Source of the DNA: a bacterium
GTDB taxonomy: Bacteria; Patescibacteriota; Minisyncoccia; Phycocordibacterales; VMGT01
Assembly (NCBI GenBank): GCA_030697645.1
Contig: JAUYPI010000018.1
Coordinates: 10,457 to 74,456, forward strand
Direction of reading: 5' to 3'
DNA: 64,000 nucleotides
Made by a program: the position numbers and the translations under genes. The notes under the pieces are model-generated. The model was not told where the DNA came from, did no database searches, and was given only the letters and a program-made list of their open reading frames with translations. Positions within the stretch are counted from its first letter, which is position 1. Every line of letters starts with the position of its first letter. Below, one piece after another: positions 6,930 through 53,336 of this stretch.

Positions 6930-7016
6930 CGAATTTTCGCGGGGGGATTTCTTCGCCGCCGCAGGCGGCGAAATGCGTTCGGACTAATTTAAGTAAGAAT
7001 GCTGCATGACGTTGTT

Positions 7017-7598
7017 ATGCTTGCTACGATTTTAAAATCGAAAAAACGCTGTTCGTGGGTTGGAAATGATCTGCCGATGCAGCAATATCACGATGAGGAA
7101 TGGGGCGTGCCTACCTACGATGACCTGAGGGCATTTGAATTTCTTGTACTTGAAAGTGCCCAGGCAGGATTAAGTTGGCGCACAGTTCTCCACAAAAGAG
7201 AAAACTATCGAAAAGCATTTGCAAACTTTGATCCACAAAGAGTTTCTCGTTTTTCGAGTCGTGATGTTGCGCGATTGTTAAAAAACTCTGGCATTATTAG
7301 AAACAATGCAAAAATTAATGCAGCCATTAATAATGCACATCGGTTTGTTGAAGTACAGGAAGAGTTCGACTCCTTTACGGCATATTCATGGGGGTTTGTT
7401 CATAACGAACCAATAAGACACTCTATTCGAGGAATAGCTGATTATCCAACGATAAGCGCTGAATCAGTTGCGTTTGCTGCCGATCTGAAAAATCGCGGAT
7501 TCAAATTTCTCGGCCCGACGATCATGTATGCTCACATGCAAGCCGTCGGCATGGTGAATGATCACATGATAGGATGTTTTCGTCGCACACGCGTATAA
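7017..7598 (+). CDS. tag: DNA-3-methyladenine glycosylase I
   Basis: CSWVGNDLPMQQYHDEEWGVP, LVLESAQAGLSW and C-terminal AHM..CF motifs characteristic of Tag. Confidence 0.85.
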   Translation: MLATILKSKKRCSWVGNDLPMQQYHDEEWGVPTYDDLRAFEFLVLESAQAGLSWRTVLHKRENYRKAFANFDPQRVSRFSSRDVARLLKNSGIIRNNAKINAAINNAHRFVEVQEEFDSFTAYSWGFVHNEPIRHSIRGIADYPTISAESVAFAADLKNRGFKFLGPTIMYAHMQAVGMVNDHMIGCFRRTRV

Positions 7599-7795
7599 TT
7601 CGACTACCATCTTCTTTCGGCGACGGTAGCCGAGTACGATGTCGTTTTATGAAAGGCGAGTATGTACAAGAGAAAGCGCGACCGCGGTCGGCACGGAGGC
7701 CGCCGCGGCTCGAGTGGAAAGTCGCGCGACGCGGCTCACGGCCGGTGCGGAAAGCACGTGCAATAGAGACGAAGTAGCGGCGGCAGTCGTGCACA

Positions 7796-9292: not shown

Positions 9293-9445
9293 AGCAAAAT
9301 TCGAAATCCGAAACAAATCGAATTTCCAAGCAACCAATTTCCAAATTTTCAAATCTCAAACACGAACAACGTTCGGGTTTAGAAATTGGAGCTTTGAGAT
9401 TTGGAAATTGTCTTCCAAATTGATTCCTTGGAGCTTGGAAATTCG
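9293..9445. repeat. Palindromic heptad-repeat element, B-type
   Basis: AATTTCCAAGCAACCAATTTCCAAATTTTCAAATCTCAAACACGAACAACGTTCGGGTTTAGAAATTGGAGCTTTGAGATTTGGAAATT... It lies immediately 5' of the DHH gene start on the minus strand. Confidence 0.8.
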
Positions 9446-10772: not shown

Positions 10773-12359
10773 ATGGGTGACTACAGCGCTTATTTTCGCG
10801 GCAAGCAGATTACGCTAATAGGCCTGGGGCTTCTTGGGCGCGGTGTTAATGTGGCGAAGTTTCTTGCGGAGTGTGGGGCGGATATGCTCGTGACCGATTT
10901 GAAAACGAAGGATCAGCTTCAGCCGTCGCTTAAAAAACTCGCGCGGTTTAAGAATATTCGCTTCGTGCTCGGCGAGCACCGACTCGAGAACTTCCGGGGT
11001 GTCGACATGGTGATCAAGGCCGCGGGCGTGCCGCTTGATTCGCCGTTTATCGCCGAGGCTCGCTCACATGGCGTGCCGGTCAAAATGGACGCGTCACTCT
11101 TTGCCGAGCTCGCGCCGCCCGGCGTGCTTCTTGTCGGCATTACCGGAACGCGCGGGAAGTCAACGACGACGCAGTTGCTCTACGAGGTGCTAAACGACTG
11201 GCGTAAGGTATTAGGTGTTAGGTATCAGGTTGGCGGACGTTCCGGCCACGAACTCCCCAGTTACCAGTTACCAGTTACCAGTCCCTCGCGGTCACATCGC
11301 GTCTTCCTCGGCGGTAACATCCGTGGCATGGCAACCCTGCCACTCCTCAAAAAAGTCCGCCCTGGCGACATCGTCGTTCTCGAGCTCGACTCGTGGCAGC
11401 TTCAGGGCTTCGGCGAGGCGAAGATCAGTCCGCACGTTGCGGTTTTTACGACATTTTTCGATGACCACCTTAATTACTATGATAGGGACCGCGGACGTTA
11501 TTTGAAGGATAAGGCAAACATTTTTACATACCAAAGTGGCGTAAAAAATTTTCAATTTTCAATTTTCAATTTTCAAACTCGGCCAGTATTGATTGTGGGC
11601 GCACAGGCGGCACCTTTGATACGCAAACATTTTGCGGAGCACGCACAGCGGATGAAGGTGGTGCGGCCGAGCAATGTACCGAAAAATTGGAAGCTCGCGA
11701 TTCCTGGCGAGCATAATCGCGCGAATGCTGCCTCGGCGCTCGTGGCGGCGGATGCACTTGGTGTGCCGCGTTCGGTCAGCAAGCGCGCTATTACTTCTTT
11801 TCATGGTCTCCCCGGTCGCCTCGAGCTCGTGCGAGAGCTCCGCGGCGTCAAAATTTATAACGACACGTGTGCGACGACTCCGGAGGCAACGATCGCCGCG
11901 CTCCGCGCGCTCGGCAGACTAAGCAGCAAGCAGCAAGCAGCAAGCAGCAAGGTCCATCGGATAATTCTTATTATGGGTGGAGCGGACAAAGGGCTCGACA
12001 TGTCGGGGCTGCTCAAGGAGATTCCAAGGTATTGCAGAGCAGTTATTTGGCTTCCGGGTACTGGCACAAATAGAATTATGAAGCATGAATCAAGAAGCAT
12101 GGAAACGGAAGCAATAATTCATTATTCCAAATTCTTGATTCAAGAGATGTACACAACCACACTGAGCGCGGCAATAAAGCAGGCGGTCCTTGTCGCAAGG
12201 AAGGGGGATAGTATTCTCTTCAGCCCCGCCTTCGCCTCATTCGGCATGTTCAAGAATGAGTACGACCGGGGAGAAAAATTTAATCGCGCGGTAGCGGCCC
12301 GTAAAGACACGACCCGCGCGAAGGCGCGGGTCAGTAGAATGCAACATAACGAATCTTAA
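10773..12359 (+). CDS. murD: UDP-N-acetylmuramoyl-L-alanine--D-glutamate ligase, enlarged by three in-frame heptanucleotide-repeat insertions
   Basis: Mur ligase ATP motif GITGTRGKSTTT, central and C-terminal Mur ligase domains (GGADKG, SPAFASFGMF). At 528 aa it is longer than a typical ~450 aa MurD. The coding sequence contains (TTACCAG)3 at 11261-11283, (AATTTTC)4 at 11547-11576 and (CAAGCAG)4-5 at 11921-11951. Confidence 0.85.
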   Translation: MGDYSAYFRGKQITLIGLGLLGRGVNVAKFLAECGADMLVTDLKTKDQLQPSLKKLARFKNIRFVLGEHRLENFRGVDMVIKAAGVPLDSPFIAEARSHGVPVKMDASLFAELAPPGVLLVGITGTRGKSTTTQLLYEVLNDWRKVLGVRYQVGGRSGHELPSYQLPVTSPSRSHRVFLGGNIRGMATLPLLKKVRPGDIVVLELDSWQLQGFGEAKISPHVAVFTTFFDDHLNYYDRDRGRYLKDKANIFTYQSGVKNFQFSIFNFQTRPVLIVGAQAAPLIRKHFAEHAQRMKVVRPSNVPKNWKLAIPGEHNRANAASALVAADALGVPRSVSKRAITSFHGLPGRLELVRELRGVKIYNDTCATTPEATIAALRALGRLSSKQQAASSKVHRIILIMGGADKGLDMSGLLKEIPRYCRAVIWLPGTGTNRIMKHESRSMETEAIIHYSKFLIQEMYTTTLSAAIKQAVLVARKGDSILFSPAFASFGMFKNEYDRGEKFNRAVAARKDTTRAKARVSRMQHNES

Positions 12360-13513
12360 ACACGTAACTTGGTGAGCAAACTGCGTGCTTGCTGCTCCGC
12401 CCATTCAATCGCGCTGAAAAGCGACACCACATCGTTCGCTTCGTACGGCGTATGTAGTCGCATCACGCCTTGGATACCGAGCGGAATCTGGTGAAATCCA
12501 ATGGAGCGGTCGAGAAATGCCCGCACAAAAACATCATTCGCCGCGCACATCACCGCTGGCATGGTGCCGCCGATTTTCGCCGCCTCGTAGGCCAGACTGA
12601 CGCACGGGAAACGATCGGTATCGCATGGCTCAAAGGTGAGTTCTCCTGGTGCGTCAAACAATGAAAATTTTGTTGCGTTGTGTACGGGGCGCCGCTGTGG
12701 GTACAGAAGCGCGTACTGAATGGGAATACGCATGTCCGGCACGCTCAGCTGGGCAAGGGTTGTTCCGTCTTTGAATGCCACCATGGAGTGGATGATTGAC
12801 TCAGGGTGAACCACTATATCTATCCGCTCCGGAGGAATCTCAAAGAGATGCATCACCTCAATCACCTCAAAACCCTTGTTCATCAGCGTTGCTGAGTCAA
12901 CGGTGATCTTCGGACCCATTTTCCAGGTGGGGTGCTTGAGGGCCTGTAGAGGTGTCACGCGCTCGAGTTTTCTTTTGGGGGTTTTGCGGAACGGCCCCCC
13001 TGAAGCCGTGAGGATAAGTCGTGCGACTGATTCTCGCGGCACTCCCTCGAGGCACTGAAAGATGGCGCTCGGTTCCGAGTCCACCGGAAGGATCCACGCC
13101 CCGTATTTTTTTGCGGTTTCCATCGTGAGGACTCCAGCCGCGACCATGGTTTCTTTGTTCGCGAGCGCCATGTCCTTTCCTTTTCCGAGCGCGGCAAGAG
13201 TGGGCTTGATTCCAGCAACCCCGACAATGCCGTTGACCACGAGATCGGCCTCTCCGAGAGTCGCGAGTTGTGCAAGCCCCGCTTCCCCCACAAACACCGG
13301 GATTGATACCTCCGGTATTAAAATTTTTGCCTGCGATGGATCGCTGACCGCGACGACTTGGGGCCGAAATTCCTTGATCTGTTTATACAACAGGGCGATT
13401 TTTTGGTGCGTGGAAAGAGCAACTATTTCGAGCAGATCAGGGTTATTTCGCACCACATCAAGTGTTTGCGTTCCGATAGAACCGGTTGATCCTAAAACGG
13501 TAAGTTTTTTCAT
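12356..13513 (-). CDS. dxr: 1-deoxy-D-xylulose 5-phosphate reductoisomerase
   Basis: N-terminal GSTGSIGTQTLDV NADPH motif and conserved Dxr core (ANKE, LPVDSEPSAI, HPTW) along the full length. Confidence 0.9.
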   Translation of the reverse strand: MKKLTVLGSTGSIGTQTLDVVRNNPDLLEIVALSTHQKIALLYKQIKEFRPQVVAVSDPSQAKILIPEVSIPVFVGEAGLAQLATLGEADLVVNGIVGVAGIKPTLAALGKGKDMALANKETMVAAGVLTMETAKKYGAWILPVDSEPSAIFQCLEGVPRESVARLILTASGGPFRKTPKRKLERVTPLQALKHPTWKMGPKITVDSATLMNKGFEVIEVMHLFEIPPERIDIVVHPESIIHSMVAFKDGTTLAQLSVPDMRIPIQYALLYPQRRPVHNATKFSLFDAPGELTFEPCDTDRFPCVSLAYEAAKIGGTMPAVMCAANDVFVRAFLDRSIGFHQIPLGIQGVMRLHTPYEANDVVSLFSAIEWAEQQARSLLTKLRV

Positions 13514-17127: not shown

Positions 17128-17262
17128 GAGACGTCCTCCTCTGTGCAATATTTATTCTCGCGCAGGCATGACCTGTGCACTTGGTATCTATTCTTACATA
17201 TAGCAGGAATGCTGCAGTGAGGCAAGTCTCTTTGTCGAAGACGCGGCTGCGCCTACATATAC

Positions 17263-17288
17263 CAAACGCCCCCGAAGGGGCGTTTGGT
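17263..17288. terminator. bidirectional terminator hairpin downstream of the HU gene
   Basis: CCAAACGCCCC-GAAG-GGGGCGTTTGG. Confidence 0.6.
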
Positions 17289-17334
17289 ATAAATGGGATA
17301 CGTGCGCTCCGGAGCACACATTTCTTTTACGCGG

Positions 17335-17726: not shown

Positions 17727-17817
17727 TGTATCTTGTATTTTGTATTTCGTAGTTTGTATAAAAGCTGAATCTCGCTATACAAAATACGAGATACAAGATA
17801 CGAAATACAAGCTACAA
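17727..17817. promoter_or_regulatory. Long imperfect AT-rich palindrome between rny and the HU gene
   Basis: GTATCTTGTATTTTGTATTTCGTAGTTTGTATA ... TATACAAAATACGAGATACAAGATACGAAATACAAGCTACAAG, imperfectly complementary arms around 17767. Confidence 0.4.
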
Positions 17818-17818
17818 G

Positions 17819-19348
17819 TTACCGCGCGAACTCTATCGCCCTGGTCTCGCGAATCACGGTTACTTTGATCTCTCCCGGAAATTTGAGCTCCTGCTCGACG
17901 CGTATTGCGATCTCGCGCGCGGTGGCGCGCGCCTCGGCGTCGGAGACGTCCTCGGGCTTCACAAAAATGCGTATCTCGCGGCCTGCCGAGAGGGCGAAGG
18001 ATTTTTCGATTCCCGGGAACGAGTTGGCGATCGCTTCGAGGTCTCCGAGGCGCTTGAGGTAGTTCTCTACGCTGTCGCGGCGCGCGCCGGGGCGGCCTCC
18101 GGAGATCGCGTCCGCGACTTGGACGATGATGGACTCGAGCGTCTCGTACGGGTATTCCTCATGGTGCGATTGCATGGCGAGAACGATCGCGGGGTCCACG
18201 TTGAACTTCTGAAGGATGCGTCGCCCGATCTCAACATGCGTACCTTGCACGTCGTGATCCACGGCCTTGCCGATATCGTGGAGGAGTGCCCCTGCGCGCG
18301 CGACAGCGGGGTTTGCGCCGACCTCCTCGGCGATCATGCCTGCGATATGGGCCATTTCGATTGAGTGCTGGAGCACGTTCTGTCCGTAGCTCGTGCGGAA
18401 ATGGAGGCGCCCCAGGATGCCGAGGAGCTTCGGGTCGAGGTTGAGCGCGCTGCACTCATAGGCGGCCTGCTCGCCTTTCTCTTTGATGATTTTACTGATG
18501 TCCGCCTGGGCTTTCTCAACAAGATCCTCGATCCGCGCGGGCTGGATTCTGCCGTCGAGGATGAGATTCTCGAGTGCGAGGCGCGCGACGTGGCGGCGCA
18601 CCGGATCAAAACAGGAGAGCGTGATCACCCCCGGCGTGTCGTCAACAATCACCTCGACGCCGGTTGCGCGCTCAAAGGCTTTGATATTGCGGCCCTCTTT
18701 GCCGATAATTTTTCCCTTGACGTCGTCCGAGGGGAGGGCCACGGTTGTCGCGAGCGTCTCCGAGGTGACGGCGTTCCCGAGCCTATGGATCGCGGTCGTG
18801 AGGATCTCGCGCGCGCGGCGCTCCAGGCGCTCGAGACCCGCGCTCTCGAGCTTCTGGACGCGCACCATCATGTCCTGGTCGAAATTTTTCTCGACCGTCG
18901 CGAGCAGTTCCGCGCGAGCCGCCTCCTCACTGAGACCCGCGACGCGCTCGAGCTCGCTCTGCTTGCGGCGCTCGAGTTCCTCGGCTCGCGCGCGTACCGC
19001 TTTTACCTCCTCGACTTTCTGCTTCACCCGCTCGACCTCGGCGTCAATCTCGCCTTGCCTGCGGTCGAGGAGTTCTTCTTTTTTAATAAAGCGCTCTTCG
19101 GTGCGTCTGAATTCGCCCTCACGGGTCTTCAGCGTGCGCTCGAATTCGGCCATCCCGACTTTTGCCTTTTCTTCTCCCTCGGCGACGATTTTTTGTGACT
19201 TTTCCTTGGCGTCAAGCATCATCTGCTTAATCGCAAGTTCCATCGAGCCCTTTTTTCCGAGCGAGACGATCCAGCGCAGGAAATATCCGAACGCTGTGCC
19301 TAGTAGGCCGGAGGCGGCGGCGAGAGCCAGTGCTATTTTAAGTGACAT
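17819..19348 (-). CDS. rny: ribonuclease Y
   Basis: N-terminal TM, long coiled-coil, KH domain (GKIIGKEGRNIK), and HD domain (HSIEMAHIAG...LLHDIGK). Confidence 0.9.
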   Translation of the reverse strand: MSLKIALALAAASGLLGTAFGYFLRWIVSLGKKGSMELAIKQMMLDAKEKSQKIVAEGEEKAKVGMAEFERTLKTREGEFRRTEERFIKKEELLDRRQGEIDAEVERVKQKVEEVKAVRARAEELERRKQSELERVAGLSEEAARAELLATVEKNFDQDMMVRVQKLESAGLERLERRAREILTTAIHRLGNAVTSETLATTVALPSDDVKGKIIGKEGRNIKAFERATGVEVIVDDTPGVITLSCFDPVRRHVARLALENLILDGRIQPARIEDLVEKAQADISKIIKEKGEQAAYECSALNLDPKLLGILGRLHFRTSYGQNVLQHSIEMAHIAGMIAEEVGANPAVARAGALLHDIGKAVDHDVQGTHVEIGRRILQKFNVDPAIVLAMQSHHEEYPYETLESIIVQVADAISGGRPGARRDSVENYLKRLGDLEAIANSFPGIEKSFALSAGREIRIFVKPEDVSDAEARATAREIAIRVEQELKFPGEIKVTVIRETRAIEFAR

Positions 19349-20130: not shown

Positions 20131-20243
20131 CCCCCCTACGTTTGGCGTAGGGGGTTTCGTCGTGGCTGCCCGCCAGGCTTGTGCACAGACCGCAAAGATT
20201 ATCGCGCGGGTTGTTTGGTATACTGTGTGTAAATATAGGATTG

Positions 20244-20372
20244 AATTTTCAATTTCTAATTTTCAATCAATTTTCAATTATTCAATTTTCAAACACGAAC
20301 GGCGCGCCACCGTCATTGGATCATTGTAACATTGAAAATTTATTGGAAATTGAAAATTGTAAATTGAAAATT
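20244..20372. repeat. Palindromic heptad-repeat element, A-type, ending 4 nt before the pilB ATG
   Basis: AATTTTCAATTTCTAATTTTCAATCAATTTTCAATTATTCAATTTTCAAACACGAACGGCGCGCCACCGTCATTGGATCATTGTAACATTGAAAATTTATTGGAAATTGAAAATTGTAAATTGAAAATT. Confidence 0.85.
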
Positions 20373-20376
20373 TTGT

Positions 20377-22143
20377 ATGCACATAGAGGACCCCCAGCTC
20401 ATTGAATTCATCGAAGACGCCGGGCTTGTCTCGCGTGCCGATCTCGACCGAGCGAAGACAGAGGCGACGAAAAAGAAAACACCCCTCGGCGACTTTCTGG
20501 TGACCGATGGCAAGATTACCGCGGATGACTTACGTCGCATCGAGGCCTATATTCTCGGCATACCCTTTGTAAGCTTGCATGACCAACCGCTTGACCAAGC
20601 GACGCTCGCCCTCGTGCCCGAGCCCATCGCACGCACGCACAATATCGTCGCGTTCCGCAAAGACGGCGAGACGCTCGAGGTTGCGATGCTCGACGTCGAA
20701 GACCTCGGAGCTATTGATTTCGTGAAGAAGAAGACCGGTCTCAAAATCCTGCCGCGCCTCACCGACAGCGTTTCGATCAAGGACGCGCTCAAGCTCTATC
20801 AGCGCGGGCTCCATGAGGAATTTGGGGAGCTTATTAAAACCGACACCGCCGCGCTGCCGGACATTAAAGCCGCCGCGGAGGATATAGGCGGGGGCGGCGA
20901 GCCGAAAAGCGAGGCAGACCTCAAGAAGCTCGCGGAGGATCTGCCGGTTATAAGAATTGTCGACACGCTCCTTAAGCACGCCGTGCTCCAAAATGCCTCG
21001 GACATCCACATCGAGCCGATGGAAAATCAGGTTCTCGTGCGCTATCGGATTGACGGCCTGCTTCGCGACGCGATGGTGCTCCCGCGGCACGCGGCGGAGA
21101 GCATTACGGCGCGTATCAAGGTGCTCGCGCAGCTGAAGCTCGACGAGAAGCGCCTGCCGCAGGACGGGCGCTTTAAGGTGGAGTCCGAGAGCGAGCGGGT
21201 GGCGATCCGCGTCTCGATCCTACCCACCTACTTTGGCGAGAAGACGGTGATGCGTCTCCTCAGAGAGAGCGTTCAGGGATACACACTCGAGGGGCTTGGC
21301 TTTCACGGTGCGGCGCTTGAGCAGGTGCACCATGCGCTCACCAAGACGACCGGGATGGTTCTCACCACAGGCCCCACTGGATCAGGTAAAACCACGACGC
21401 TCTATACCATGCTCGACATCCTAAATACTCCGGGCGTCAACATTTCGACCATTGAAGACCCGATCGAGTACCAGATGGCGCGCGTCAACCAAACGCAGGT
21501 TCGCCCCGAGATCGGGCTTACCTTTGCCTCGGGGTTGCGCACCCTCGTGCGGCAGGACCCAGACATCGTGATGGTCGGCGAGATACGCGACACTGAGACC
21601 GCAGGGCTTGCGATCAATGCCGCGCTTACCGGCCACCTCGTGCTCTCGACCTTGCACACAAACTCCGCTGCGGGCGCGATGCCGCGCTTGATTGATATGA
21701 AGGCCGAGCCGTTCCTTCTCGTTTCGACTCTCAACGTGGTGATCGCACAGCGGCTCGTGCGCCGCATCGGCAAAGAGCGGGAGAAACTATCCCTCACGAA
21801 GAACGACCTCGCGTCGCTCGAGAAGCACGTTAATCTCGATCGCATTCAGAAGCAGCTTGAGGAGGAGAGTGTGATACCGGAAGGCACGAAGTTCGACAAA
21901 ATCGCGTTCTACCGGCCGAAGCACCCCGATGCGCTGGAAGGTTATCAGGGACGTGCGGGCATTTACGAGGTGCTGGTCGTCACGCCGGCGATTAAAGAGC
22001 TCGTGATGCGCGGCGTCCCTTCCGATGAGATCGCGGCTCGTGCGCGGGCGGATGGGATGCTCACCATGTTTGAGGACGGGATCTTCAAAGCGGCGCAGGG
22101 GATAACGACGATAGAAGAGGTGCTCAGGGTAATATCAGAGTAG
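20377..22143 (+). CDS. pilB: type IV pilus assembly ATPase PilB (GspE family)
   Basis: N-terminal GspII domain, Walker A TGPTGSGKTTTLY, Asp box and His box of secretion ATPases. Confidence 0.9.
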   Translation: MHIEDPQLIEFIEDAGLVSRADLDRAKTEATKKKTPLGDFLVTDGKITADDLRRIEAYILGIPFVSLHDQPLDQATLALVPEPIARTHNIVAFRKDGETLEVAMLDVEDLGAIDFVKKKTGLKILPRLTDSVSIKDALKLYQRGLHEEFGELIKTDTAALPDIKAAAEDIGGGGEPKSEADLKKLAEDLPVIRIVDTLLKHAVLQNASDIHIEPMENQVLVRYRIDGLLRDAMVLPRHAAESITARIKVLAQLKLDEKRLPQDGRFKVESESERVAIRVSILPTYFGEKTVMRLLRESVQGYTLEGLGFHGAALEQVHHALTKTTGMVLTTGPTGSGKTTTLYTMLDILNTPGVNISTIEDPIEYQMARVNQTQVRPEIGLTFASGLRTLVRQDPDIVMVGEIRDTETAGLAINAALTGHLVLSTLHTNSAAGAMPRLIDMKAEPFLLVSTLNVVIAQRLVRRIGKEREKLSLTKNDLASLEKHVNLDRIQKQLEEESVIPEGTKFDKIAFYRPKHPDALEGYQGRAGIYEVLVVTPAIKELVMRGVPSDEIAARARADGMLTMFEDGIFKAAQGITTIEEVLRVISE

Positions 22144-22145
22144 GC

Positions 22146-22265
22146 AAATTTTCAATTTTCAATTTTGCAATTTTCAATCAATTTTGCAATGACTCAATTT
22201 TCAAACACGAACGACGTCGTCGTCATTGAGACGTTGAAAATTTATTGAAAATTGAAAATTGAGAA
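22146..22265. repeat. Palindromic heptad-repeat element, A-type, between pilB and pilC
   Basis: AAATTTTCAATTTTCAATTTTGCAATTTTCAATCAATTTTGCAATGACTCAATTTTCAAACACGAACGACGTCGTCGTCATTGAGACGTTGAAAATTTATTGAAAATTGAAAATTGAGAATTGGAAATTG. Confidence 0.85.
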
Positions 22266-22283
22266 TTGGAAATTGCGATAGCT

Positions 22284-23513
22284 ATGCCTTCCTTCACCTA
22301 CAAGGCCAAAAAAACCGACGGTGCCGAATACGACGGCACCTTCGACGGCGTTGATCGCTTCGCGCTCTTTCACCATATCCGCGAGGAGGGCGGCACGGTG
22401 GTCTCGTTTGAGGAGAAAGGAGGAGAGAAACGCCGTGCGTTCCATGTGAACCTCGAGTCGATTAACGCGTTTTTGAGCCGGGTCAGAGAGCACGATAAAA
22501 TTTCTCTCGCGAGGAACCTCGGCGCGATGCTATCCGCCGGGCTCTCCGTCTCCCGCGCGCTCGAGATTCTCGATCGCCAGATGCGGCACCCAGCGCTCCG
22601 GAGAGTCTTCGGGCACCTCCAGGGCTCAATCAGCGCCGGCAAAACGCTCCATGAGGGGCTCTCCGCGTTTCCGCGCGTGTTCCCGCCGCTTTTTATCGCG
22701 ATGGTGCGGGCAGGGGAGGAGAGCGGCGGGCTCGCACAGGCGCTCGCGCTCATTTCGACCCAGATGGAACAAACGTATCTTCTCAAAAAACGTATTCGCG
22801 GCGCAATGATGTACCCGACGATCGTCCTCTGCGCCATGGTAGCGGTTGGCGCGGCAATGATGGTCTATGTGGTGCCGACCCTCTCGGACACCTTTCGCGA
22901 ACTCAAGGTAGAACTTCCCACGAGTACGCGCATCATCATCGGCATTAGCGATTTTATGAAAGCGCACTATCTGCTTGCGTTTGGTGGAGCCGTAGCGGCA
23001 ATCGTGGGCTTTTTCGCGCTCCTCCGCACGCGTCTTGGTCGCCGCGCCAAGGAGATCGTCCTACTCTATACCCCGATCATTCGCCCCTTGGTCCAGGAGA
23101 CGAATGCCGCGCGCGTCGCCCGCACGCTCTCCTCGCTCCTCTCTGCCGGCGTGGCGATTACCCACGCCTTTGAGATTACTGCCGACGTGGTGCAGCACAG
23201 CTCATTTCGCGCCGTGCTCGTCGAGGCCGAGGGGCGAATTCAGAAAGGGACGTCGATTGCGGATGTGTTCCGCGCCGCCGAACATCTTTATCCGCCGTTC
23301 GTCTCCGAGATGATCGCGGTTGGCGAGGAGACAGGCGATCTCTCCGCAATGCTTGTGCGCGTCGCTGATTTCTACGAGGAGGAAGTATCGCGCAAGACCA
23401 AGGACATGTCAACGGTCATCGAACCGTTTCTTATGGTGACGATCGGCGCCGGCGTCGGCTTCTTTGCCGTGTCCATGATCCAGCCCATTTATTCGTTATC
23501 GTCGGCAATTTAG
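22284..23513 (+). CDS. pilC: type IV pilus inner-membrane platform protein PilC (GspF family)
   Basis: Two GspF repeats with conserved motifs (LSRNLGAMLSAGLS / LSSLLSAGVAI) and three TM segments. Confidence 0.9.
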   Translation: MPSFTYKAKKTDGAEYDGTFDGVDRFALFHHIREEGGTVVSFEEKGGEKRRAFHVNLESINAFLSRVREHDKISLARNLGAMLSAGLSVSRALEILDRQMRHPALRRVFGHLQGSISAGKTLHEGLSAFPRVFPPLFIAMVRAGEESGGLAQALALISTQMEQTYLLKKRIRGAMMYPTIVLCAMVAVGAAMMVYVVPTLSDTFRELKVELPTSTRIIIGISDFMKAHYLLAFGGAVAAIVGFFALLRTRLGRRAKEIVLLYTPIIRPLVQETNAARVARTLSSLLSAGVAITHAFEITADVVQHSSFRAVLVEAEGRIQKGTSIADVFRAAEHLYPPFVSEMIAVGEETGDLSAMLVRVADFYEEEVSRKTKDMSTVIEPFLMVTIGAGVGFFAVSMIQPIYSLSSAI

Positions 23514-23539
23514 GTTTGTATAGCGCAAAGTGCTGCTAG

Positions 23540-23657
23540 AATTTTCAATTTACAATTTTCAATTTTCATTAAATTTTCAATTCCTCAATTTTCAAACACG
23601 AACGACGCCGCCGGCATTGAATCATTGACACATTGAAAATTGCAAAATTGAAAATTT
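23540..23657. repeat. Palindromic heptad-repeat element, A-type
   Basis: GAATTTTCAATTTACAATTTTCAATTTTCATTAAATTTTCAATTCCTCAATTTTCAAACACGAACGACGCCGCCGGCATTGAATCATTGACACATTGAAAATTGCAAAATTGAAAATTT. Confidence 0.85.
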
Positions 23658-23714
23658 AAGATACGGCGAGCACTTTGGTTTTGGCATGTGATATTAGTGC
23701 GACTACCAGTATTT

Positions 23715-24161
23715 ATGCGCGGTTTCACTTTAATTGAAATTCTTATCTCTGTTGCAGTCATTGCGATTCTCGCAAGCATTGCGACAATCTCGTTTACGGG
23801 CCTCCGCGAGCGGCAGGCGCTTTCAATCGGCGTCGAGGAGGTGCGCACACTCCTCTCTCGTGCCCGGGCGCGCACGCTTGCCGCGGAAGATGACAGCGTT
23901 TTCGGGCTCCACATAACCACTTCATCAGTCACGCTTTTTCGGGGTGTGACGTACAATCCTGCTGCAGGAGACAATGAACTGCATGTGCTCGATTCGCTCG
24001 TGACGATTTCCGCCCACGCACTTGCTGGCGGCGGCGCGGACGTGGTATTCGACAAACGAACTGGGATGACGAGTGATTACGGTACGATAACGGTGGCTCT
24101 CGCGAGTGACGTGAGCGAGAATAAGGTCATCACGATTGCGCAGACGGGGCTTGTGGAATAG
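23715..24161 (+). CDS. prepilin-type N-terminal cleavage/methylation domain protein (type IV pilin or pseudopilin)
   Basis: RGFTLIEILISVAVIAILASIA class III signal peptide with Gly(-1), Phe(+1), Glu(+5). Confidence 0.85.
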   Translation: MRGFTLIEILISVAVIAILASIATISFTGLRERQALSIGVEEVRTLLSRARARTLAAEDDSVFGLHITTSSVTLFRGVTYNPAAGDNELHVLDSLVTISAHALAGGGADVVFDKRTGMTSDYGTITVALASDVSENKVITIAQTGLVE

Positions 24162-24190
24162 CGAAATGGCCAAGGCAGCTGGTCGGGCCG

Positions 24191-24308
24191 AATTTTCAAT
24201 TTACAATTTTCAATCAATTTTCAATTACCCAATTCTCAAACACGACGCCGTCCGTAATTGAGTCATTGAAACATTGAAAATTTATTGAAAATTGAGAATT
24301 GGAAATTT
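24191..24308. repeat. Palindromic heptad-repeat element, A-type
   Basis: AATTTTCAATTTACAATTTTCAATCAATTTTCAATTACCCAATTCTCAAACACGACGCCGTCCGTAATTGAGTCATTGAAACATTGAAAATTTATTGAAAATTGAGAATTGGAAATTT. Confidence 0.85.
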
Positions 24309-24318
24309 AATTGCGGTT

Positions 24319-25365
24319 ATGTTGCTTACTACCAAGCCACCACGGGGCTTCAGCCTCGTTGAGGTCGTCGTCGGTTCCGCCATCATTCTCATCGTGCTCG
24401 GCGGGCTTATTGCCGCGTTCACTCGCTACGCAGCGACGCTTTTCCGCACTACCGATCGGGTACAAGCAACGTATCTTGCCGAGGAGGGGATTGAAGTGGC
24501 GCGTATCCTCCGCGACGCGAGCTGGACCAGCTTTGCCGCGCTCACGCTCGATACGCCGTACCGGCTCGCGCTCTCAAGCGGCGTGTGGGAGGCGACGACA
24601 AGCGAGGCGCTCATTGATGGCGCGTTTGATCGCACGATGACGCTTCAGAGCGTGTATCGGCGGACGAGCGATAGTGATATCGTTGCGTCAACCTCGCTCG
24701 CGAGCAAGGCGATCGACCCCGACGCGCGGTACGTTTTAGTGCGCCTCAGCTGGAGCCCGCTGCCGTTCTCCGAGGCCTCTGCGGAGGCATTTGAGGCAGG
24801 CTCCACAGACGGGGATCTTGGGGGCTTTCCGTCAAATAACGGCGGCAATGGCGACATCGCGCAGGGTTTCACCGTGCCTGCCGGGAGCGACATCGTGGTG
24901 CCGCGCGTGGAGCTTTATCTGCGTCGTGTAACCGCCGCACCATCTGATTTGTACCTTGAAATCCGAAGCGGCTCGACGGTAGGGCCCGTCGTTGCGACGT
25001 CCGCGACGCTTGATGGCGCGTCCCTGCCTGCGACACTGTTGTGGACTTCATTTACTTTTCCGACACGGCCGACGCTCACCGGGGGCGTTCTCTACCACCT
25101 GCGCCTTCGGAGTGATCCCGATTCGACCGTCGCATTTTCCGGTTCGATCGGAACGATTCATTGGGGCTATCTACAGGCTGACCCGAGCCCCTACGGAGGC
25201 GGCATCGCGCGACGATACGTTGGACGTCTTGGGAATCCACTGGACGAAGGTCAGGCGCTCGATCAGTACGACTTTTCGTTTCGTGTCTACAAGGAAGTGC
25301 CGGGCGGTTTTGCTGAGGCAATCGAGTACACGACACACCTTGTGAATTTGTTTGAGACACCGTAG
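24319..25365 (+). CDS. prepilin-like minor pilin (large pseudopilin)
   Basis: PRGFSLVEVVVGSAIILIVLGGLIA prepilin leader with Glu+5. 350 aa, Gly/Ser/Thr-rich C-terminal domain. Confidence 0.75.
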   Translation: MLLTTKPPRGFSLVEVVVGSAIILIVLGGLIAAFTRYAATLFRTTDRVQATYLAEEGIEVARILRDASWTSFAALTLDTPYRLALSSGVWEATTSEALIDGAFDRTMTLQSVYRRTSDSDIVASTSLASKAIDPDARYVLVRLSWSPLPFSEASAEAFEAGSTDGDLGGFPSNNGGNGDIAQGFTVPAGSDIVVPRVELYLRRVTAAPSDLYLEIRSGSTVGPVVATSATLDGASLPATLLWTSFTFPTRPTLTGGVLYHLRLRSDPDSTVAFSGSIGTIHWGYLQADPSPYGGGIARRYVGRLGNPLDEGQALDQYDFSFRVYKEVPGGFAEAIEYTTHLVNLFETP

Positions 25366-25367
25366 GC

Positions 25368-25660
25368 GAAATTTTCAATTTTCAATTTTGCAATTTTCAA
25401 TAAATTTTCAATGAATCAATTTTCAAACACGTAACCACTCACCTTCGTACACAACCGCGTAACAAAGCCGTCATTGCGAGGAGCAAGATCCCTTCGCTTC
25501 GCTCGGGACAGGCTCCGCAATTCAGAGTCAGTACGTAAAACCCCTGGATTGCTTCGCTCCTTTTAGTCGCTCGCAAAGACGGGCGTGAGTGATTACTCAA
25601 ACACGAACGGTGCCGTGGTCATTGAGACATTGAACCATTGAAAATTGCAAATTGAAAATT
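25368..25660. repeat. Palindromic heptad-repeat element, A-type, split by a nested 165-bp insertion
   Basis: The left arm ends ...CAATTTTCAAACACG at 25431 and the repeat resumes TCAAACACGAACGGTGCCGTGGTCATTGAGACATTGAACCATTGAAAATTGCAAATTGAAAATT at 25596, directly abutting the ATG at 25661. Confidence 0.85.
25431..25595. mobile_element. MITE-like insertion with 12-bp terminal inverted repeats (GTAACCACTCAC / GTGAGTGATTAC, one mismatch) and an 8-bp target-site duplication (TCAAACAC)
   Basis: Inverted-repeat ends and duplicated TCAAACAC on both flanks read directly from the sequence. The insertion interrupts an otherwise typical palindromic repeat at its core. Confidence 0.7.
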
Positions 25661-26191
25661 ATGCGAGATTTCCAACATCCAAAACTCGGTCAGACATTGA
25701 TTGAACTACTCGTCTATGCTGCGCTCGTGGTCATCATTGGCGGTATCGTGACGACGATGCTTGTCGCGATGCAGCGCGCGATTGCGCAGACGCTTGTTGC
25801 GCGCCGCGTTCAGGCGACGGCCGCAGTGGTACTTGAGCGCATCGTGCGCGACGCGCGAGTGGCCCATGACATTGACGAGCTCGCGAGTACGCTTGGCGTG
25901 CATCCCGGGCGTGTGACCCTGCTCGTTCGTGATGAGGGCGGCGGGCCGGATGTCGCGTACGCCTTCGAGGCGGTAGCGTCAGCGCTCGAAGTGCGGCGCA
26001 ACGGCGTGCTTGAAGGATCCCTGACGCCCGACACCGTTTCGGTTGCGAATCTTGTTTTTCGGGAAGTCGTAACGCCGGTGTCGGAGGCGCTCCGCATCGA
26101 GCTCACGCTGCATGCGGAGCAGGGGCGGGCGTCGAGTACGGAGAAATTTTATGTAACTACCGTTTTGCGGGATTCGTATCAGTTGGAGTAA
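25661..26191 (+). CDS. prepilin-like minor pilin
   Basis: KLGQTLIELLVYAALVVIIGGI N-terminal hydrophobic helix with Glu+5 after a short leader. Confidence 0.7.
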   Translation: MRDFQHPKLGQTLIELLVYAALVVIIGGIVTTMLVAMQRAIAQTLVARRVQATAAVVLERIVRDARVAHDIDELASTLGVHPGRVTLLVRDEGGGPDVAYAFEAVASALEVRRNGVLEGSLTPDTVSVANLVFREVVTPVSEALRIELTLHAEQGRASSTEKFYVTTVLRDSYQLE

Positions 26192-26213
26192 TCGTATGTC
26201 TTCGTGTGTGAAA

Positions 26214-26327
26214 AAATTTTTAATTATCAATTTTGCAATTTTCAATCAATTTTCAATTACCCAATTTTCAAACACGACGCCGTCGTCATTGAGTCATTGA
26301 AACATTGAAAATTGTAAATTGAAAATT
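26214..26327. repeat. Palindromic heptad-repeat element, A-type, abutting the ATG at 26328
   Basis: AATTATCAATTTTGCAATTTTCAATCAATTTTCAATTACCCAATTTTCAAACACGACGCCGTCGTCATTGAGTCATTGAAACATTGAAAATTGTAAATTGAAAATT. Confidence 0.85.
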
Positions 26328-27617
26328 ATGACATACCTGCAATCTCAAAACCGCGGCGCCGCTCTCACTCTCGCCGTTCTGATGCTCACCGCCGCCATGA
26401 TTCTCGTCGTCGGCGGCGTGATGTTCCCTGCGCTTCACGCGATCCGCTCCGCGCACGAGTTCACGCGCTCCGAGGACAGTTTTTTTCATGCTGAAGGATT
26501 GCTTGAGGACGTGCTCTATCGGATGCGCGAAGACGTCGACGTGGATACGCTCGAGGTTTTCTCGGAGAGCGGCCGCGTCGCCACCGCAACGGTAACAGCA
26601 GTGGGGACGCTCCAGGAGATCGTCTCACGTGGTGAGCGACTGCGCTCAGTGCGTAAGGTGCGCGCGCTTCTTGATATCGGCAGCGGTGGCGCGGTGTTTA
26701 ACTTCGGCATTCAAGCAGGCGATGGCGGTGTTGATCTCGATAACAACGCGAGCGTTATAGGCAATGTCTATTCAAATGGTCCAATAGTAGGCGAAGGCCT
26801 CAACGACATTACGGGCTCAGCCGTTTCAGCGAGTACAACGGGGCTTATAGACGACATTCATACCGGAGCGGATGCGTTCGCACACATGATCAAAGATTCC
26901 CTCGTTGACGGCGATGCCTACTATCAGATCATAACCGGCACGACTGTCACCGGCACGCCTTTCGATGAGAGTCCGGATCAAGCGACGAGCACGCTCCCCA
27001 TAAGTGACGCGATGGTAGCAGACTGGGAGGCGGACGCTGTCTTGGGCGGCACACTCGTGTGCAATAGCGGATCAGAGCATAAAATTACAAGCGATACGAC
27101 ACTTGGCCCGGTAAAAATTCCCTGCGATCTTGAGATTTCCGGCAATACGACGATCACACTTCGCGGCGTGGTGTGGGTCGAGGGAGATATGAATGTTCAG
27201 AATAATTCTATTATCCGCGTCGATCCTTCTTTGGGCGCGAAGAGCGTGCCAATTATCGCTGACAAGCCGTCGAGTCCTCTCACCAAAGGAAAGGTGATAC
27301 TGCAAAACCACGCCACGTTCCAAGGATCTGGAGTGGGTAACTCATATGTATTAGTCCTCTCGCAGCATGCTTCGAGCGGTTGTGGGGGCACACCGGCGAT
27401 TGATGCCAAAAATTTTGCGACCGGCGACCTCCTCGTCTACGCTGGCCATGGTGAGGTATTGATTGAGGACAACATTAATCTCAAAGAAGTGACCGCAAAC
27501 TGCGTGCACGCAAAGAACAGTGCTCAGGTTGTCTACGAAGGCGGACTTGCAACGCTCCTTTTTGTTACCGGCCCCAGCGGCGGCTATATCATCTCAAGCT
27601 GGCGGGAGGAGGAGTAG
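26328..27617 (+). CDS. large pilus-associated protein with an N-terminal pilin-like TM helix (PilX/PilY-like minor pilin or tip-adhesin candidate)
   Basis: N-terminal GAALTLAVLMLTAAMILVV helix, then a 400-aa Gly/Thr/Asn-rich domain. It is the last gene of the pilin gene series. Confidence 0.55.
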   Translation: MTYLQSQNRGAALTLAVLMLTAAMILVVGGVMFPALHAIRSAHEFTRSEDSFFHAEGLLEDVLYRMREDVDVDTLEVFSESGRVATATVTAVGTLQEIVSRGERLRSVRKVRALLDIGSGGAVFNFGIQAGDGGVDLDNNASVIGNVYSNGPIVGEGLNDITGSAVSASTTGLIDDIHTGADAFAHMIKDSLVDGDAYYQIITGTTVTGTPFDESPDQATSTLPISDAMVADWEADAVLGGTLVCNSGSEHKITSDTTLGPVKIPCDLEISGNTTITLRGVVWVEGDMNVQNNSIIRVDPSLGAKSVPIIADKPSSPLTKGKVILQNHATFQGSGVGNSYVLVLSQHASSGCGGTPAIDAKNFATGDLLVYAGHGEVLIEDNINLKEVTANCVHAKNSAQVVYEGGLATLLFVTGPSGGYIISSWREEE

Positions 27618-27620
27618 GTG

Positions 27621-27660
27621 GGCGAATTTCCAATTTCCAATAACCAATTTCCAAACAATT
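27621..27660. repeat. Heptad-repeat fragment (B-type units) upstream of tpiA
   Basis: GAATTTCCAATTTCCAATAACCAATTTCCAAACAATTTTGC. The ORF track translates it as a spurious N-terminal extension of TpiA. Confidence 0.6.
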
Positions 27661-27695
27661 TTGCTTCAGCGTGCCGCGTGCGCTACACTGGGGCC

Positions 27696-28469
27696 ATGGC
27701 GGCAGGCAGACAATACTTTCTCGTTGCAAACTGGAAGCTTCACCCGGCGCGGATGGCCGAGGCGAAGATGCTCGCGGGTATTGCAAAGAAGCGGGCGAAT
27801 CGCTGCACTCGCGTGCTGAGCGTAATTTGTCCGCCCGCGATTTTTCTCGCGGAGCTTGCCGCACGCTACAGCTCGCAGAGGCTCTCCTTCGGCGCGCAGG
27901 ATTGCTTTTTTGAAGAGCGCGGCGCATTCACCGGAGAAATCGCGGCGCAGATGATTAAAGACGTGCGGGGGCAGTATGTGATTCTCGGCCACTCGGAGCG
28001 CCGCGCACTCGGTGAGACTGACGAGACGGTTAGTAAGAAAGTACGCGCCGCGCTCGGCGCGGGGCTCACCGCAGTGCTCTGCATCGGCGAGCGCGAGCGG
28101 GACGATGAGGGTCGCTACCTCGCGTTTCTCGAAAGCCAGCTTGGGGCGGCGCTCGCAGGGCTCTCGCGGCAGAAGCTCGGCAAGCTCATGGTCGCCTACG
28201 AGCCGATCTGGGCTATTGGGAAGGGCGCGGAGAGCGCAATGGGTCCGCACGACATGCACGAAACTTCGCTTTTTATCCGGAAAGTTCTTCGCGAGCGCTA
28301 TGGCGAGAGAGCGGCGTTTGCCGTGCCCATACTCTACGGCGGATCAGTCGCACCGGAGAACGCGGCAGCGATTGTGCGGGACGGCGAAGTCCAAGGCCTC
28401 CTCGTGGGCCATAAGTCGCTTGACCCGAAGGCATTCGGGGAGATTATGGGAGAGCTTGACAGCATTTGA
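27696..28469 (+). CDS. tpiA: triosephosphate isomerase
   Basis: VANWKLH, ILGHSERR and AYEPIWAIGKG catalytic motifs. Confidence 0.9.
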   Translation: MAAGRQYFLVANWKLHPARMAEAKMLAGIAKKRANRCTRVLSVICPPAIFLAELAARYSSQRLSFGAQDCFFEERGAFTGEIAAQMIKDVRGQYVILGHSERRALGETDETVSKKVRAALGAGLTAVLCIGERERDDEGRYLAFLESQLGAALAGLSRQKLGKLMVAYEPIWAIGKGAESAMGPHDMHETSLFIRKVLRERYGERAAFAVPILYGGSVAPENAAAIVRDGEVQGLLVGHKSLDPKAFGEIMGELDSI

Positions 28470-28493
28470 TCCTCAATCATCAGGCGTTGTCAG

Positions 28494-28625
28494 AATTTTC
28501 AATGCTCAATTTTCAATTTTCAATCAATTTTCAATTACTCAATTTTCAAACACGACGCAGCCCGTCTTTGAATCATTGGGACATTGAAAATTTATTGGAA
28601 ATTGGAAATTGGAAATTGGAAATTT
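28494..28625. repeat. Palindromic heptad-repeat element, hybrid: A-type left arm and B-type right arm (GGAAATTGGAAATTGGAAATT)
   Basis: GAATTTTCAATGCTCAATTTTCAATTTTCAATCAATTTTCAATTACTCAATTTTCAAACACGACGCAGCCCGTCTTTGAATCATTGGGACATTGAAAATTTATTGGAAATTGGAAATTGGAAATTGGAAATTT. Confidence 0.85.
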
Positions 28626-29784
28626 AGACCGTGCACATATTCCGAGCATTCGAGACGCTGCCAATCTTCGAGGCAAGCGGATAGTGCTGCGCCTGGACTT
28701 GAATGTCCCTCTGACTCCGCAAGGCGAGGTGGCGGACGATTTTCGTATTCGCAAGGTGTTGCCGACGCTCGCGCTGCTCGGTGAGCGGGGAGCACTGGTG
28801 CGCGCCGTGAGCCACATTGACGGTGCGGGGGGGTCGCTGCGCGCGGTTGCGGACTATATGGTTCGGCATCTTGGCGTCGCGCTCACATTTGTGCCGGAAA
28901 TGGCGCACCCGCAAGCTGCACTCGTACTCGAGCGCCAGAGTCCGCGCGAGATTGTGCTTTTTGAAAACATCCGCCGCGAGCCCGGGGAAGAGCGTAATGA
29001 CCCGGCGTTTGCCGAGCGTCTCGCTGGCCTCGGGGATGTATATGTCAACGACGCGTTCTCCGTGTCGCATCGCCCCCACGCCTCGATTGTCGGCGTGCCA
29101 AAACTCCTTCCATCCTATACGGGGCTCCAGTTTACTGATGAAATCGAACACCTCTCGCAGGCCTTTGACCCGCCGCGCCCGTTTATCTTTATCATCGGCG
29201 GCATTAAATTTTCGACGAAGTTGCCTCTCGTGCGTAAGTTCCTCGATATCGCCGATGCCGTGTTTGTCGGCGGCGCGCTTGCAAACGACATTTTCCGGGC
29301 GCGCGGGCTCTCGGTGGGGAAATCGGTTGTTTCAGAGGAAGCGCTTGATCTATCTGGCATCGTTAATCACCCAAAACTCCTCACGCCCTCGGACGTCCGG
29401 GTGCGTCCGGCGGATGATCCGCGCGAAGAGGCAGCGCACCTCGCGCGGCCGGAGAATGTCAGCGCCGACGAGATTATTATGGACGCGGGGCCAGCGACAC
29501 TTGAGGCGCTTCGCGAGAGCATCGGCTCGGCAGCGTTCATTGTCTGGAATGGCCCCCTTGGCGATTACGAACATGATTTCGAGGAGGGGACCGAGGCGCT
29601 TGCGGCTTTGATCGCTGCGGCACTCGGGCGCTCGGTCGTTGGCGGCGGCGATACCATTGCCGCGATCAGTCGCCTCAAACTTGAAGCAAAGTTCACCTTT
29701 GTCTCCACCGGCGGTGGCGCGATGCTCGACTTTCTCGCCGATAGCATGCTGCCGGGTCTTGAGGCGTTGATGGCGCGTGTGTGA
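28609..29784 (+). CDS. pgk: phosphoglycerate kinase. The true start is probably GTG at 28631; the first codons of the ORF are translated repeat
   Basis: KRIVLRLDLNVP N-terminal motif, hinge and C-terminal GGGDT / TGGGA nucleotide-binding motifs. Confidence 0.9.
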   Translation: MEIGNLDRAHIPSIRDAANLRGKRIVLRLDLNVPLTPQGEVADDFRIRKVLPTLALLGERGALVRAVSHIDGAGGSLRAVADYMVRHLGVALTFVPEMAHPQAALVLERQSPREIVLFENIRREPGEERNDPAFAERLAGLGDVYVNDAFSVSHRPHASIVGVPKLLPSYTGLQFTDEIEHLSQAFDPPRPFIFIIGGIKFSTKLPLVRKFLDIADAVFVGGALANDIFRARGLSVGKSVVSEEALDLSGIVNHPKLLTPSDVRVRPADDPREEAAHLARPENVSADEIIMDAGPATLEALRESIGSAAFIVWNGPLGDYEHDFEEGTEALAALIAAALGRSVVGGGDTIAAISRLKLEAKFTFVSTGGGAMLDFLADSMLPGLEALMARV

Positions 29785-31508: not shown

Positions 31509-31667
31509 AATTCCAAGCTCCAACCAACAAATTCCACGTAAATTCCAAGCTCCAAAAAACAAGCTCCAAACAAATTCCAATGATTCAAATTCCAATTTCC
31601 AAACACGCACGTTTGAGATTTGGAGTTTGAGATTTGTTTGGAAATTGTTTTTTGGAATTTGGAAATT
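31509..31667. repeat. Palindromic heptad-repeat element, B-type, upstream of smpB
   Basis: AATTCCAAGCTCCAACCAACAAATTCCACGTAAATTCCAAGCTCCAAAAAACAAGCTCCAAACAAATTCCAATGATTCAAATTCCAATTTCCAAACACGCACGTTTGAGATTTGGAGTTTGAGATTTGTTTGGAAATTGTTTTTTGGAATTTGGAAATT. Confidence 0.85.
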
Positions 31668-37853: not shown

Positions 37854-38089
37854 CCATGCCAGTGAGACCGAAAGACAAACACCCCCGCCTATAGCGGGGG
37901 TGTTTGTCTTTCATGCTATACGCAAAAGAACTAAACAGAACTTTCAAGAATTCTCTCAACACTTTCACCACCGATGCAACCCATACAATGCAGACGACTC
38001 CTTCGCATTCACGCCTTCATATCAATCCTCTTCCGTCGTTCTGTTTTTTAGAATACCACAACAATCGTGAACAATTCGTGAACATGTAT

Positions 38090-53335: not shown

Positions 53336-53336
53336 T

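Follow-up and report, generated by a model that had tools for sequence, protein, structure and literature searches.

The enterobacterial repetitive intergenic consensus (ERIC) or intergenic repeat unit (IRU) elements and the Correia elements of Neisseria are imperfect palindromes of ~100-150 nt that lie in transcribed intergenic regions and occur in longer variants arising from internal insertions. ERIC and Correia elements have been reported to affect mRNA processing and stability and to contribute promoters. In the reduced genome of Rickettsia, the Rickettsia palindromic elements (RPEs) can sit in frame in coding genes, and among the repetitive extragenic palindromes (REPs) the same intergenic sites may hold different REP types in related species. 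The REPs and bacterial interspersed mosaic elements (BIMEs) of Proteobacteria, and their REPIN form with its REP-associated tyrosine transposase (RAYT; PMC3116915, PMC3733652), are abundant intergenic palindromes, often intra-operon, which are transcribed as hairpins and make up genome-specific families. Coxiella's 23S rRNA intervening sequence (IVS) has terminal inverted repeats that form a stem around an S23p open reading frame (ORF), and is excised by RNase III (PMC4990558). Here we analyse a 64-kb stretch of a metagenome-assembled genome (MAG) of the Patescibacteriota (contig JAUYPI010000018.1 of assembly GCA_030697645.1, positions 10,457 to 74,456; the whole stretch is hereafter the window), in which an AT-rich palindrome that we call family A occupies nearly every junction of a string of type IV pilus genes. 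We argue that family A is probably one of a wider class of interspersed palindromic elements, akin to REP, ERIC and Correia elements and to miniature inverted-repeat transposable elements (MITEs), and not a pilus-specific cis-regulator.

Copies of family A were found by searching for direct and inverted repeats, by counting heptads, and with an nhmmer profile built from the copies, and the window proved to hold nine full and two partial ones (Table 1). The full copies (nhmmer E-values of 1e-13 to 4e-36) are palindromes of 112-138 nt, in which the left arm consists of successive AATTTTC heptads and terminates in CAATTTTCAAACACG, a short GC-rich and variable hairpin makes up the centre, and the right arm mirrors the left as ATTGAAAATT units, with 5-7 heptads per arm. 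The plus orientation always outscores the minus against the profile, and thus all copies share subfamily-specific asymmetries. When folded as RNA, all eight unsplit copies form long hairpins (-29 to -54 kcal/mol, z -3.0 to -9.6), a stability that no shuffled sequence reached (0/200). The preliminary description of this locus, made from the letters alone, had reported near-identical structured palindromes of about 120 nt; the size and the structure are borne out, while the copies are less alike than was thought, with pairwise identities of 65-86% (median 78%). One copy, in front of the third pilin-like gene, is split at its exact centre by 164 nt (25433-25596) of unrelated, GC-rich and hairpin-forming sequence (-51.6 kcal/mol), of which no second copy occurs in the window or in the relatives' sequences compared. 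RNAalifold applied to 15 family-A copies returned 10 invariant pairs and zero covariation, the low-complexity arms aligning in shifted registers, which makes this result uninformative. Sense and antisense folding energies and G-U counts showed no consistent bias, so that RNA-level and DNA-level palindromy are inseparable by this comparison. The element matches no Rfam family at the gathering score, the window's matches being tRNAs and tmRNA only. The half element, one of the two partial copies, lies in frame within a Mur-ligase ORF (10773-12359), where it encodes KNFQFSIFNFQ.

The distribution of these copies is strikingly uneven. From upstream of pilB to pgk, a family-A palindrome is present in 7/8 junctions of the pilus (pil) string, as against 2/65 junctions elsewhere in the window (Fisher p = 1.7e-7), and if all long palindromes are counted the figures are 7/8 and 8/65 (p = 2.8e-5). 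An 11.8-kb stretch of glycan genes in the same genome contains no such elements. It had been proposed that each of seven consecutive genes is preceded by a separate copy with essentially no other intergenic DNA. The first part stands for the other junctions, those before pilB and pgk included, and fails before tpiA, where there is a 39-nt remnant only. The second part describes most junctions well, the gap from stop codon to element being mostly 2-25 nt and that from element to start codon mostly 0-8 nt, but not the 48 nt before the pilin gene at 23715 or the 106 nt upstream of the pilB copy. The element had also been assigned to pilMNO and to a ComEC-like metallo-beta-lactamase (MBL) gene. 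In the former case, where pilM and pilN are both identified by Pfam, one family-A copy does follow pilN, but the palindrome upstream of pilM (57375-57506) belongs to a different family, B. In the latter the assignment was mistaken: the nearest copy (3263-3379) lies elsewhere, with neither neighbour a pilus or competence gene, and what stands upstream of the MBL gene at 4419 is a 182-nt MITE; the gene itself matches only the C-terminal domain of ComEC, with a score under the family cut-off.

Comparison of the pil loci of relatives (percentages below give PilC identity to the window) revealed that the junctions are occupied by different palindromes in different lineages. Five assemblies of one population (L009 to L013; 90%), 99.9% identical to one another across genes and elements, have junctions of window-like sizes that hold other palindrome families, mainly with GTCAAAA heptads. 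Between L010 and the window nucleotide identity is 78-87%, in alignments that break off at gene borders, and the L010 junction before pgk carries the family of window 57375-57506, 92-93% identical. In L019 (83%) and L020 (85%) the pilB/pilC junction holds further families, with CCTAATT and CAAATGT heptads, and the pilC/pilin junction holds families that sit at other junctions in L010. Arm autocorrelation has its maxima at lag 7 and lag 14 in every family tested, those of the relatives included. Palindromes are absent from the compact pil clusters of L014 (80%; gaps of 7-80 nt) and of the Kaiserbacteria locus L016 (53%; gaps of 1-94 nt). L015 (58%) is compact save for two ~85-nt palindromes whose sequences are unrelated, one preceding pilB and the other in the pilB/pilC junction (z = -5.7 and -7.7), and L023 (56%) has weaker hairpins at the same two pilB-flanking sites (z = -1.2 and -2.2). 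By parsimony, we infer that the compact state of L014, L016 and most L015 junctions is the ancestral one.

Family A itself recurs far from pilus genes. Other genomes were scanned with an exact 29-nt family-A pattern, which is so stringent that locus counts say little about abundance; it matched one Saccharibacteria MAG in the genome collections and six metagenome contigs (34-58% GC, one of them Paceibacteria-like by its RseP homologues), and had no match in viral contigs. Across genomes of this range of GC content the block AATTTTCAAACACG is nearly invariant. The gene pairs that flank family A elsewhere are RRF/RseP, RecR/CHASE protein, an alkylation-repair gene/DnaB and MurA/an unknown gene, with further neighbours including a methyltransferase/deacetylase pair, cupredoxin/DsbD, Nramp and GatA, and outside the window the element sits between tandem, convergent and divergent pairs alike. 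The RRF-RseP junction measures 20 nt in L022, contains a 152-nt family-A element in L005 and holds a different 137-nt insert in L021. Together with the pil junctions this provides filled and empty orthologous sites, as in MITEs. In the Saccharibacteria MAG (L001, 2090-2599), family-A arms enclose a 129-aa 23S_rRNA_IVP four-helix-bundle gene that lies beside gatB, outside rRNA.

Sequences around the starts of the pil genes suggest how the elements relate to transcription. An extended -10 box, TGGTATACT, was found by pattern scan at 20216-20224 (+), upstream of the pilB copy, and is conserved in L010; in L016 a related box, TGCTATACT, stands at a distance of 6 nt from the pilB ATG. As the pilB copy thus stands between a conserved -10 box and the ATG, its hairpin is probably a transcribed 5' leader. 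The earlier view of the elements as leaders agrees with their positions, and its suggestion of a transcript divided up by hairpins stays reasonable as a hypothesis; its other suggestion, a shared operator, is not supported. In L010, L014, L015, L016, L017 and the window, a Shine-Dalgarno-like motif occurs at 9/66 gene starts, and at 15/66 a TAnnnT hexamer has its end 6 or 7 nt ahead of the start codon, even inside compact pil clusters (window examples are the genes at 27696 and 57645). These figures suggest that leaderless mRNAs made from per-gene promoters are widespread in this clade of Patescibacteria. The geometry occurs at so many genes that it is unsafe to assume one promoter for the whole string, and the premise that an operon would normally need only one, from which the preliminary description had reasoned, is weak in a clade where many genes have their own -10 box 6-7 nt upstream. 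A plausible -10 box at leaderless distance is present in the right arm at only 1 or 2 of 7 element junctions, and a sigma-70 consensus scan of the elements gave weak, symmetric matches only (9 of 12). No site was called by a terminator scan at any element centre, the core stem of the window copies being followed by CATTGAG with no T run, and on these two grounds we rejected the element as an intrinsic terminator. Short hairpins of the ordinary terminator kind (CAAAC-GC stem-GTTTG) are common in the window, and the family-A core looks like a weak version of them.

We propose that interspersed elements of this kind came to fill nearly every junction of an ancestrally compact pilB-pilC-pilin-tpiA-pgk string in the lineage of this MAG. 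The copies would be co-transcribed with the pil genes, and their RNA would form imperfect hairpins of ~45-55 bp. These could act as post-transcriptional punctuation, through double-strand-specific or RNase Y-type processing, as 5' or 3' stabilisers, or as partial terminators, much as REP, ERIC and Correia elements do, and would have no role as binding sites of a sequence-specific pilus regulator. Judged from sequence and predicted folding, an effect of the hairpins on mRNA processing or stability is plausible. It is possible, too, that a hairpin at the junction is useful in itself, given that the elements occupy the spacer in full, that position is kept while the family is swapped over short divergence, that the pil string is saturated and that hairpins recur at pilB in distant relatives.

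Several observations weigh against regarding family A as an interspersed repeat in this sense. It is enriched in the pil string far more than chance would allow, and selection for the hairpin would also fit that enrichment; such selection would fit the recurrence of unrelated palindromes around pilB in distant relatives as well. The whole stop-to-start spacer is replaced, with no recognisable remnant, which is unusual for random transposition. There is no unambiguous target-site duplication, the flanking direct repeats being the element's own self-complementary AATT(T) ends and no longer than in random controls, and we found no mobilising enzyme for family A and no linked transposase. Family-B elements of the window and L010 are 91-93% identical, above the genes (~85%), and this requires either constraint or recent transfer. 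Lastly, RNA stability has no strand bias, so nothing in it is specific to RNA-level selection. One alternative would have the hairpins, of whatever sequence, kept by selection for processing by RNase III or RNase Y or for end protection, thereby setting the relative amounts of PilB, PilC and pilins, with the families interchangeable. We consider this somewhat unlikely. It is consistent with the exchange of sequence at positions that are kept in four relatives whose PilC is 83-100% identical, with the pilB-flanking hairpins of the 58% relative and the weaker ones of the 56% relative, with the saturation of the pil string, with the RNase Y gene beside the cluster in the window and relatives, and with the L001 arms around a 23S_rRNA_IVP gene, the layout of the RNase III-excised 23S IVS (PMC4990558). 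However, the 80% relative L014 and the Kaiserbacteria locus L016 do without hairpins, hairpin stability is not biased to the sense strand, and convergent and divergent genes have elements between them as well. It is unlikely, in our estimation, that we are dealing with an undescribed Patescibacteria superfamily of heptad-armed, exchangeable junction cassettes, each comprising the whole spacer at fixed gene junctions, in the type IV pilus string above all, swapped fast by a mechanism that targets hairpins or junctions and kept for transcript punctuation amid leaderless per-gene promoters.

Each arm might instead contribute an outward promoter and the centre a two-way terminator, making the element an insulator that renders each gene its own transcription unit. 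The core (CAAACACG, a GC stem, and GTTTG or a T-rich stretch in other genomes) resembles the genome's ordinary terminators, e.g. those at 37870-37912 and 17258-17291, the arms contain TTGAAA and TAAATT/GAAAAT hexamers, a TAAATT box precedes the ATG at 26328 by 7 nt, in the clade's common leaderless geometry, and a palindrome would be functional in either orientation. This we nevertheless find quite unlikely, since no terminator-like site was called at any element centre, the window copies have no T run after the core stem, the promoter matches are weak, and TAnnnT is at leaderless distance in no more than 1 or 2 of the 7 junctions. Turnover in place, by heptad slippage, hairpin-templated repair and gene conversion (that is, concerted evolution without mobility), would agree with the heptad periodicity common to all families, with the local clustering of same-family copies in the window and L010, and with entire spacers that differ between relatives. 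It is very unlikely in view of discrete families that are common to genomes at non-orthologous sites with 84-93% identity, of the invariance of the AATTTTCAAACACG block in family A across genomes of 34-58% GC, and of elements that are identical in five assemblies of one population and so not hypervariable. The preliminary description had suggested, as one possibility, a common operator or leader of a coordinated pilus and DNA-uptake regulon, whose regulator would read the TTTTCAA heptads. Although 8/9 full family-A copies of the window fall in the pilB-to-pgk string or pilMNO, and although the heptads are regularly repeated in the manner of a binding-site array, we regard this as highly improbable. 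At the same junctions the heptads are wholly different in relatives with 83-90% PilC identity, the 80% and 53% relatives lack the palindromes, which in the 58% one flank only pilB, and family A has unrelated genes as neighbours in other Patescibacteria and, within the window, tpiA/pgk and sugar-nucleotide genes, with no copy adjoining the ComEC-like gene. A pilus or competence operator is incompatible with a sequence that is swapped in close relatives, absent in others and shared with unrelated genes, and it is on this evidence that we prefer an interspersed, non-dedicated element.

Table 1. Positions in the window of family-A copies, of the genes of the pil string, and of other repeats (E, E-value; z, fold z-score)
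Feature	Position	Strand	Evidence and context
Family A, copy 1	20237-20374	+	nhmmer E = 9e-32; fold -36.2 kcal/mol, z = -3.7; stops 2 nt before pilB ATG
Family A, copy 2	22146-22277	+	nhmmer E = 1.6e-34; fold -50.6 kcal/mol, z = -6.9; 2 nt past pilB stop, 6 nt before pilC ATG
Family A, copy 3	23539-23666	+	nhmmer E = 1e-28; inverted repeat; flanks lengthen stem to 23526-23677
Family A, copy 4	24184-24310	+	nhmmer E = 8e-35; fold -41.8 kcal/mol, z = -6.1
Family A, copy 5 (split)	25368-25432 and 25596-25660 (arms)	+	two nhmmer half matches, E = 1e-13 and 2e-13
Family A, copy 6	26216-26327	+	nhmmer E = 4.5e-31; fold -28.6 kcal/mol, z = -4.5; ends TAAATTGAAAATT right at ATG
Family A, copy 7	28492-28626	+	nhmmer E = 4e-36; fold -54 kcal/mol, z = -9.6; overlaps candidate pgk TTG at 28609
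Family A, copy 8	59486-59614	+	nhmmer E = 4e-35; between pilN and following ORF
Family A, copy 9	3263-3379	+	nhmmer E = 1.3e-28; between minus-strand epimerase and NTP-transferase genes
Family A, degenerate left-arm remnant, 39 nt	27624-27662	+	AATTTCCAATTTCCAAT...; nhmmer E ~1e-3; before tpiA
Family A, half element	11547-11583	+	4 perfect AATTTTC heptads plus CAAAC; nhmmer E = 4.5e-4
pilB	20377-22143	+	Pfam T2SSE/MshEN ATPase, E = 2.5e-117
pilC	22284-23513	+	Pfam T2SSF, E = 7e-57
Prepilin-type gene 1	23715-24161	+	MRG/FTLIE; Pfam N_methyl, E = 6.9e-07
Prepilin-type gene 2	24319-25365	+	Pfam N_methyl, E = 1.1e-05
Pilin-like gene 3	25661-26191	+	translation prepilin-like, hydrophobic N-terminus G/QTLIE; ATG abuts copy 5
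Pilin-like or pilus-associated gene 4	26328-27617	+	translation with hydrophobic N-terminus, Glu at +5 missing
tpiA	27696-28469	+	Pfam TIM, E = 8.6e-70; own TACACT box 6 nt before ATG
pgk	28609-29784	+	Pfam PGK, E = 2.2e-98; start codon uncertain, candidate TTG at 28609
Family B palindromes (CCAAGCTCCAAACAA type)	436-579, 9325-9432, 31540-31667, 57375-57506		
Family C palindrome (TGTATCT type)	17727-17822		
Family D palindrome	3152-3236		
Classical MITE, 182 nt	4250-4431 and 60668-60846	opposite orientations	terminal inverted repeats AGGCCCCGTCCATAAATA, 18-26 nt; first copy just upstream of ComEC-like MBL gene, second before tRNA cluster

The genes of the string were identified by a Pfam scan of the ORFs in the window, with unmatched ORFs also compared with NCBIfam. 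The ORFs at 25661-26191 and 26328-27617 had zero matches in either collection. Four prepilin-type genes had been counted here: two have N_methyl domains and a third has a prepilin-like N-terminus, and the fourth has a hydrophobic N-terminus without the Glu at +5. The window PilC is identical to a protein of an NCBI MAG, and its named homologues come from Kaiserbacteria, Pacebacteria, Minisyncoccia and other Patescibacteria; a neighbouring gene maps to assembly GCA_034376905.1, and a look-up of the SodN protein of the window gave no match. In every relative examined the pilus genes are followed by tpiA and pgk. Upstream of pilB in the window lies an RNase Y gene (17819-19348) on the opposite strand, and its place next to the pilB-pilC-pilin-tpiA-pgk string is conserved in the window, L009-L013, L015 and L016. 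L010 has two additional genes on the minus strand (228 and 207 aa; 10840-13012), flanked by other palindromes, after the last pilin-like gene and before tpiA. The corresponding window segment (27618-27695) holds the family-A remnant only, which implies an insertion or a deletion at the site of an element. Two Logan short-read contigs with single pil genes (L002 and L020) end within palindromes, indicating that the repeats fragment assemblies of these genomes, and L018 is a similarly short contig with a neighbouring glycosyltransferase gene.

Transposase genes of the Y1 (IS200/RAYT-like) type occur in L011 (1145-1834), L013 (563-1252) and L022 (638-1333), and are 45% identical between two Patescibacteria lineages. 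In the relatives the Y1 gene is a few kb away from the pil cluster, and each such gene has a short hairpin of its own on either side, CTTTGGACATCGGATGTCCAAAG or TTCCGGAGGT...ACCTCCGGAA. Those of L011 and L022 reach 40.5 bits, where the RAYT cut-off is 80, and no Y1_Tnp domain was present among the scanned ORFs of the window. With their own hairpins the Y1 genes may constitute a REP-RAYT system; as a mover of family A the transposase was rejected, its flanking hairpins being unrelated to the heptad elements. No autonomous relative of family A with a transposase gene turned up in the window or in the loci of relatives that were compared. Elsewhere in the window there are low-GC islands (37-43%) at 5382-7600 and 53300-56000, which were probably acquired horizontally; the latter contains an HTH-SocA/Panacea antitoxin-like gene, an HNH endonuclease and a fragment of an EcoRI-type methylase. 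A LAGLIDADG-domain ORF (47479-48270) adjoins tRNA-Leu (gag), with a slight overlap.

In Patescibacteria, type IV pili have a central part in epibiotic life and in the scavenging of DNA, and to our knowledge almost nothing is known about gene expression in the group. If the elements are only selfish repeats, they still matter in practice, in that they break assemblies and can pass for regulatory leaders. Should the hairpins be functional, they would give a clade that has few Shine-Dalgarno motifs and many apparently leaderless genes a route to decouple the expression of adjacent genes, and would represent a tractable case of sequence replacement with conservation of structure and position. In the literature that we searched we found no description of such elements in Patescibacteria, or of leaderless expression there. 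Family A would thus be an element of a known kind, an interspersed palindromic repeat, whose heptad-armed Patescibacteria form appears to be new.

Two further systems of repeats were considered and set aside. An array of integron attC sites was rejected because inspection of alignments revealed no RYYYAAC...GTTRRRY cores, and the genes form a conserved syntenic pil-tpiA-pgk string and are not cassettes. DNA-uptake sequences would call for a copy number far above that observed, and the elements here are confined to intergenic DNA. With MITEs, family A shares short size, lack of coding sequence, repetition, and filled and empty sites among relatives, but the element is palindromic throughout and lacks a unique core bounded by distinct terminal repeats, and we know of no parent insertion sequence. 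Like REPs, it is an intergenic palindrome that folds into a hairpin; unlike them, it measures 112-138 nt with heptad arms, as against 20-40 nt with a GTAG or CGTC head, a head that is absent here, and no RAYT gene is linked to it. The half copy in frame in the Mur-ligase ORF recalls the RPEs, whereas RPEs are mostly intragenic and unrelated in sequence, and family A is almost wholly intergenic. The family-A arms that enclose a 23S_rRNA_IVP gene, an arrangement seen in L001 only, resemble a 23S rRNA IVS, although the window copies contain no ORF and lie outside rRNA, as does the L001 copy. From ERIC and Correia elements family A differs in phylum and sequence, in its tandem-heptad arms and in the replacement of one family by another at the same junction, and from Correia elements also in having no defined inverted repeat with a TA duplication; in size and in hairpin folding it fits both, and sequence homology would not be expected across phyla.

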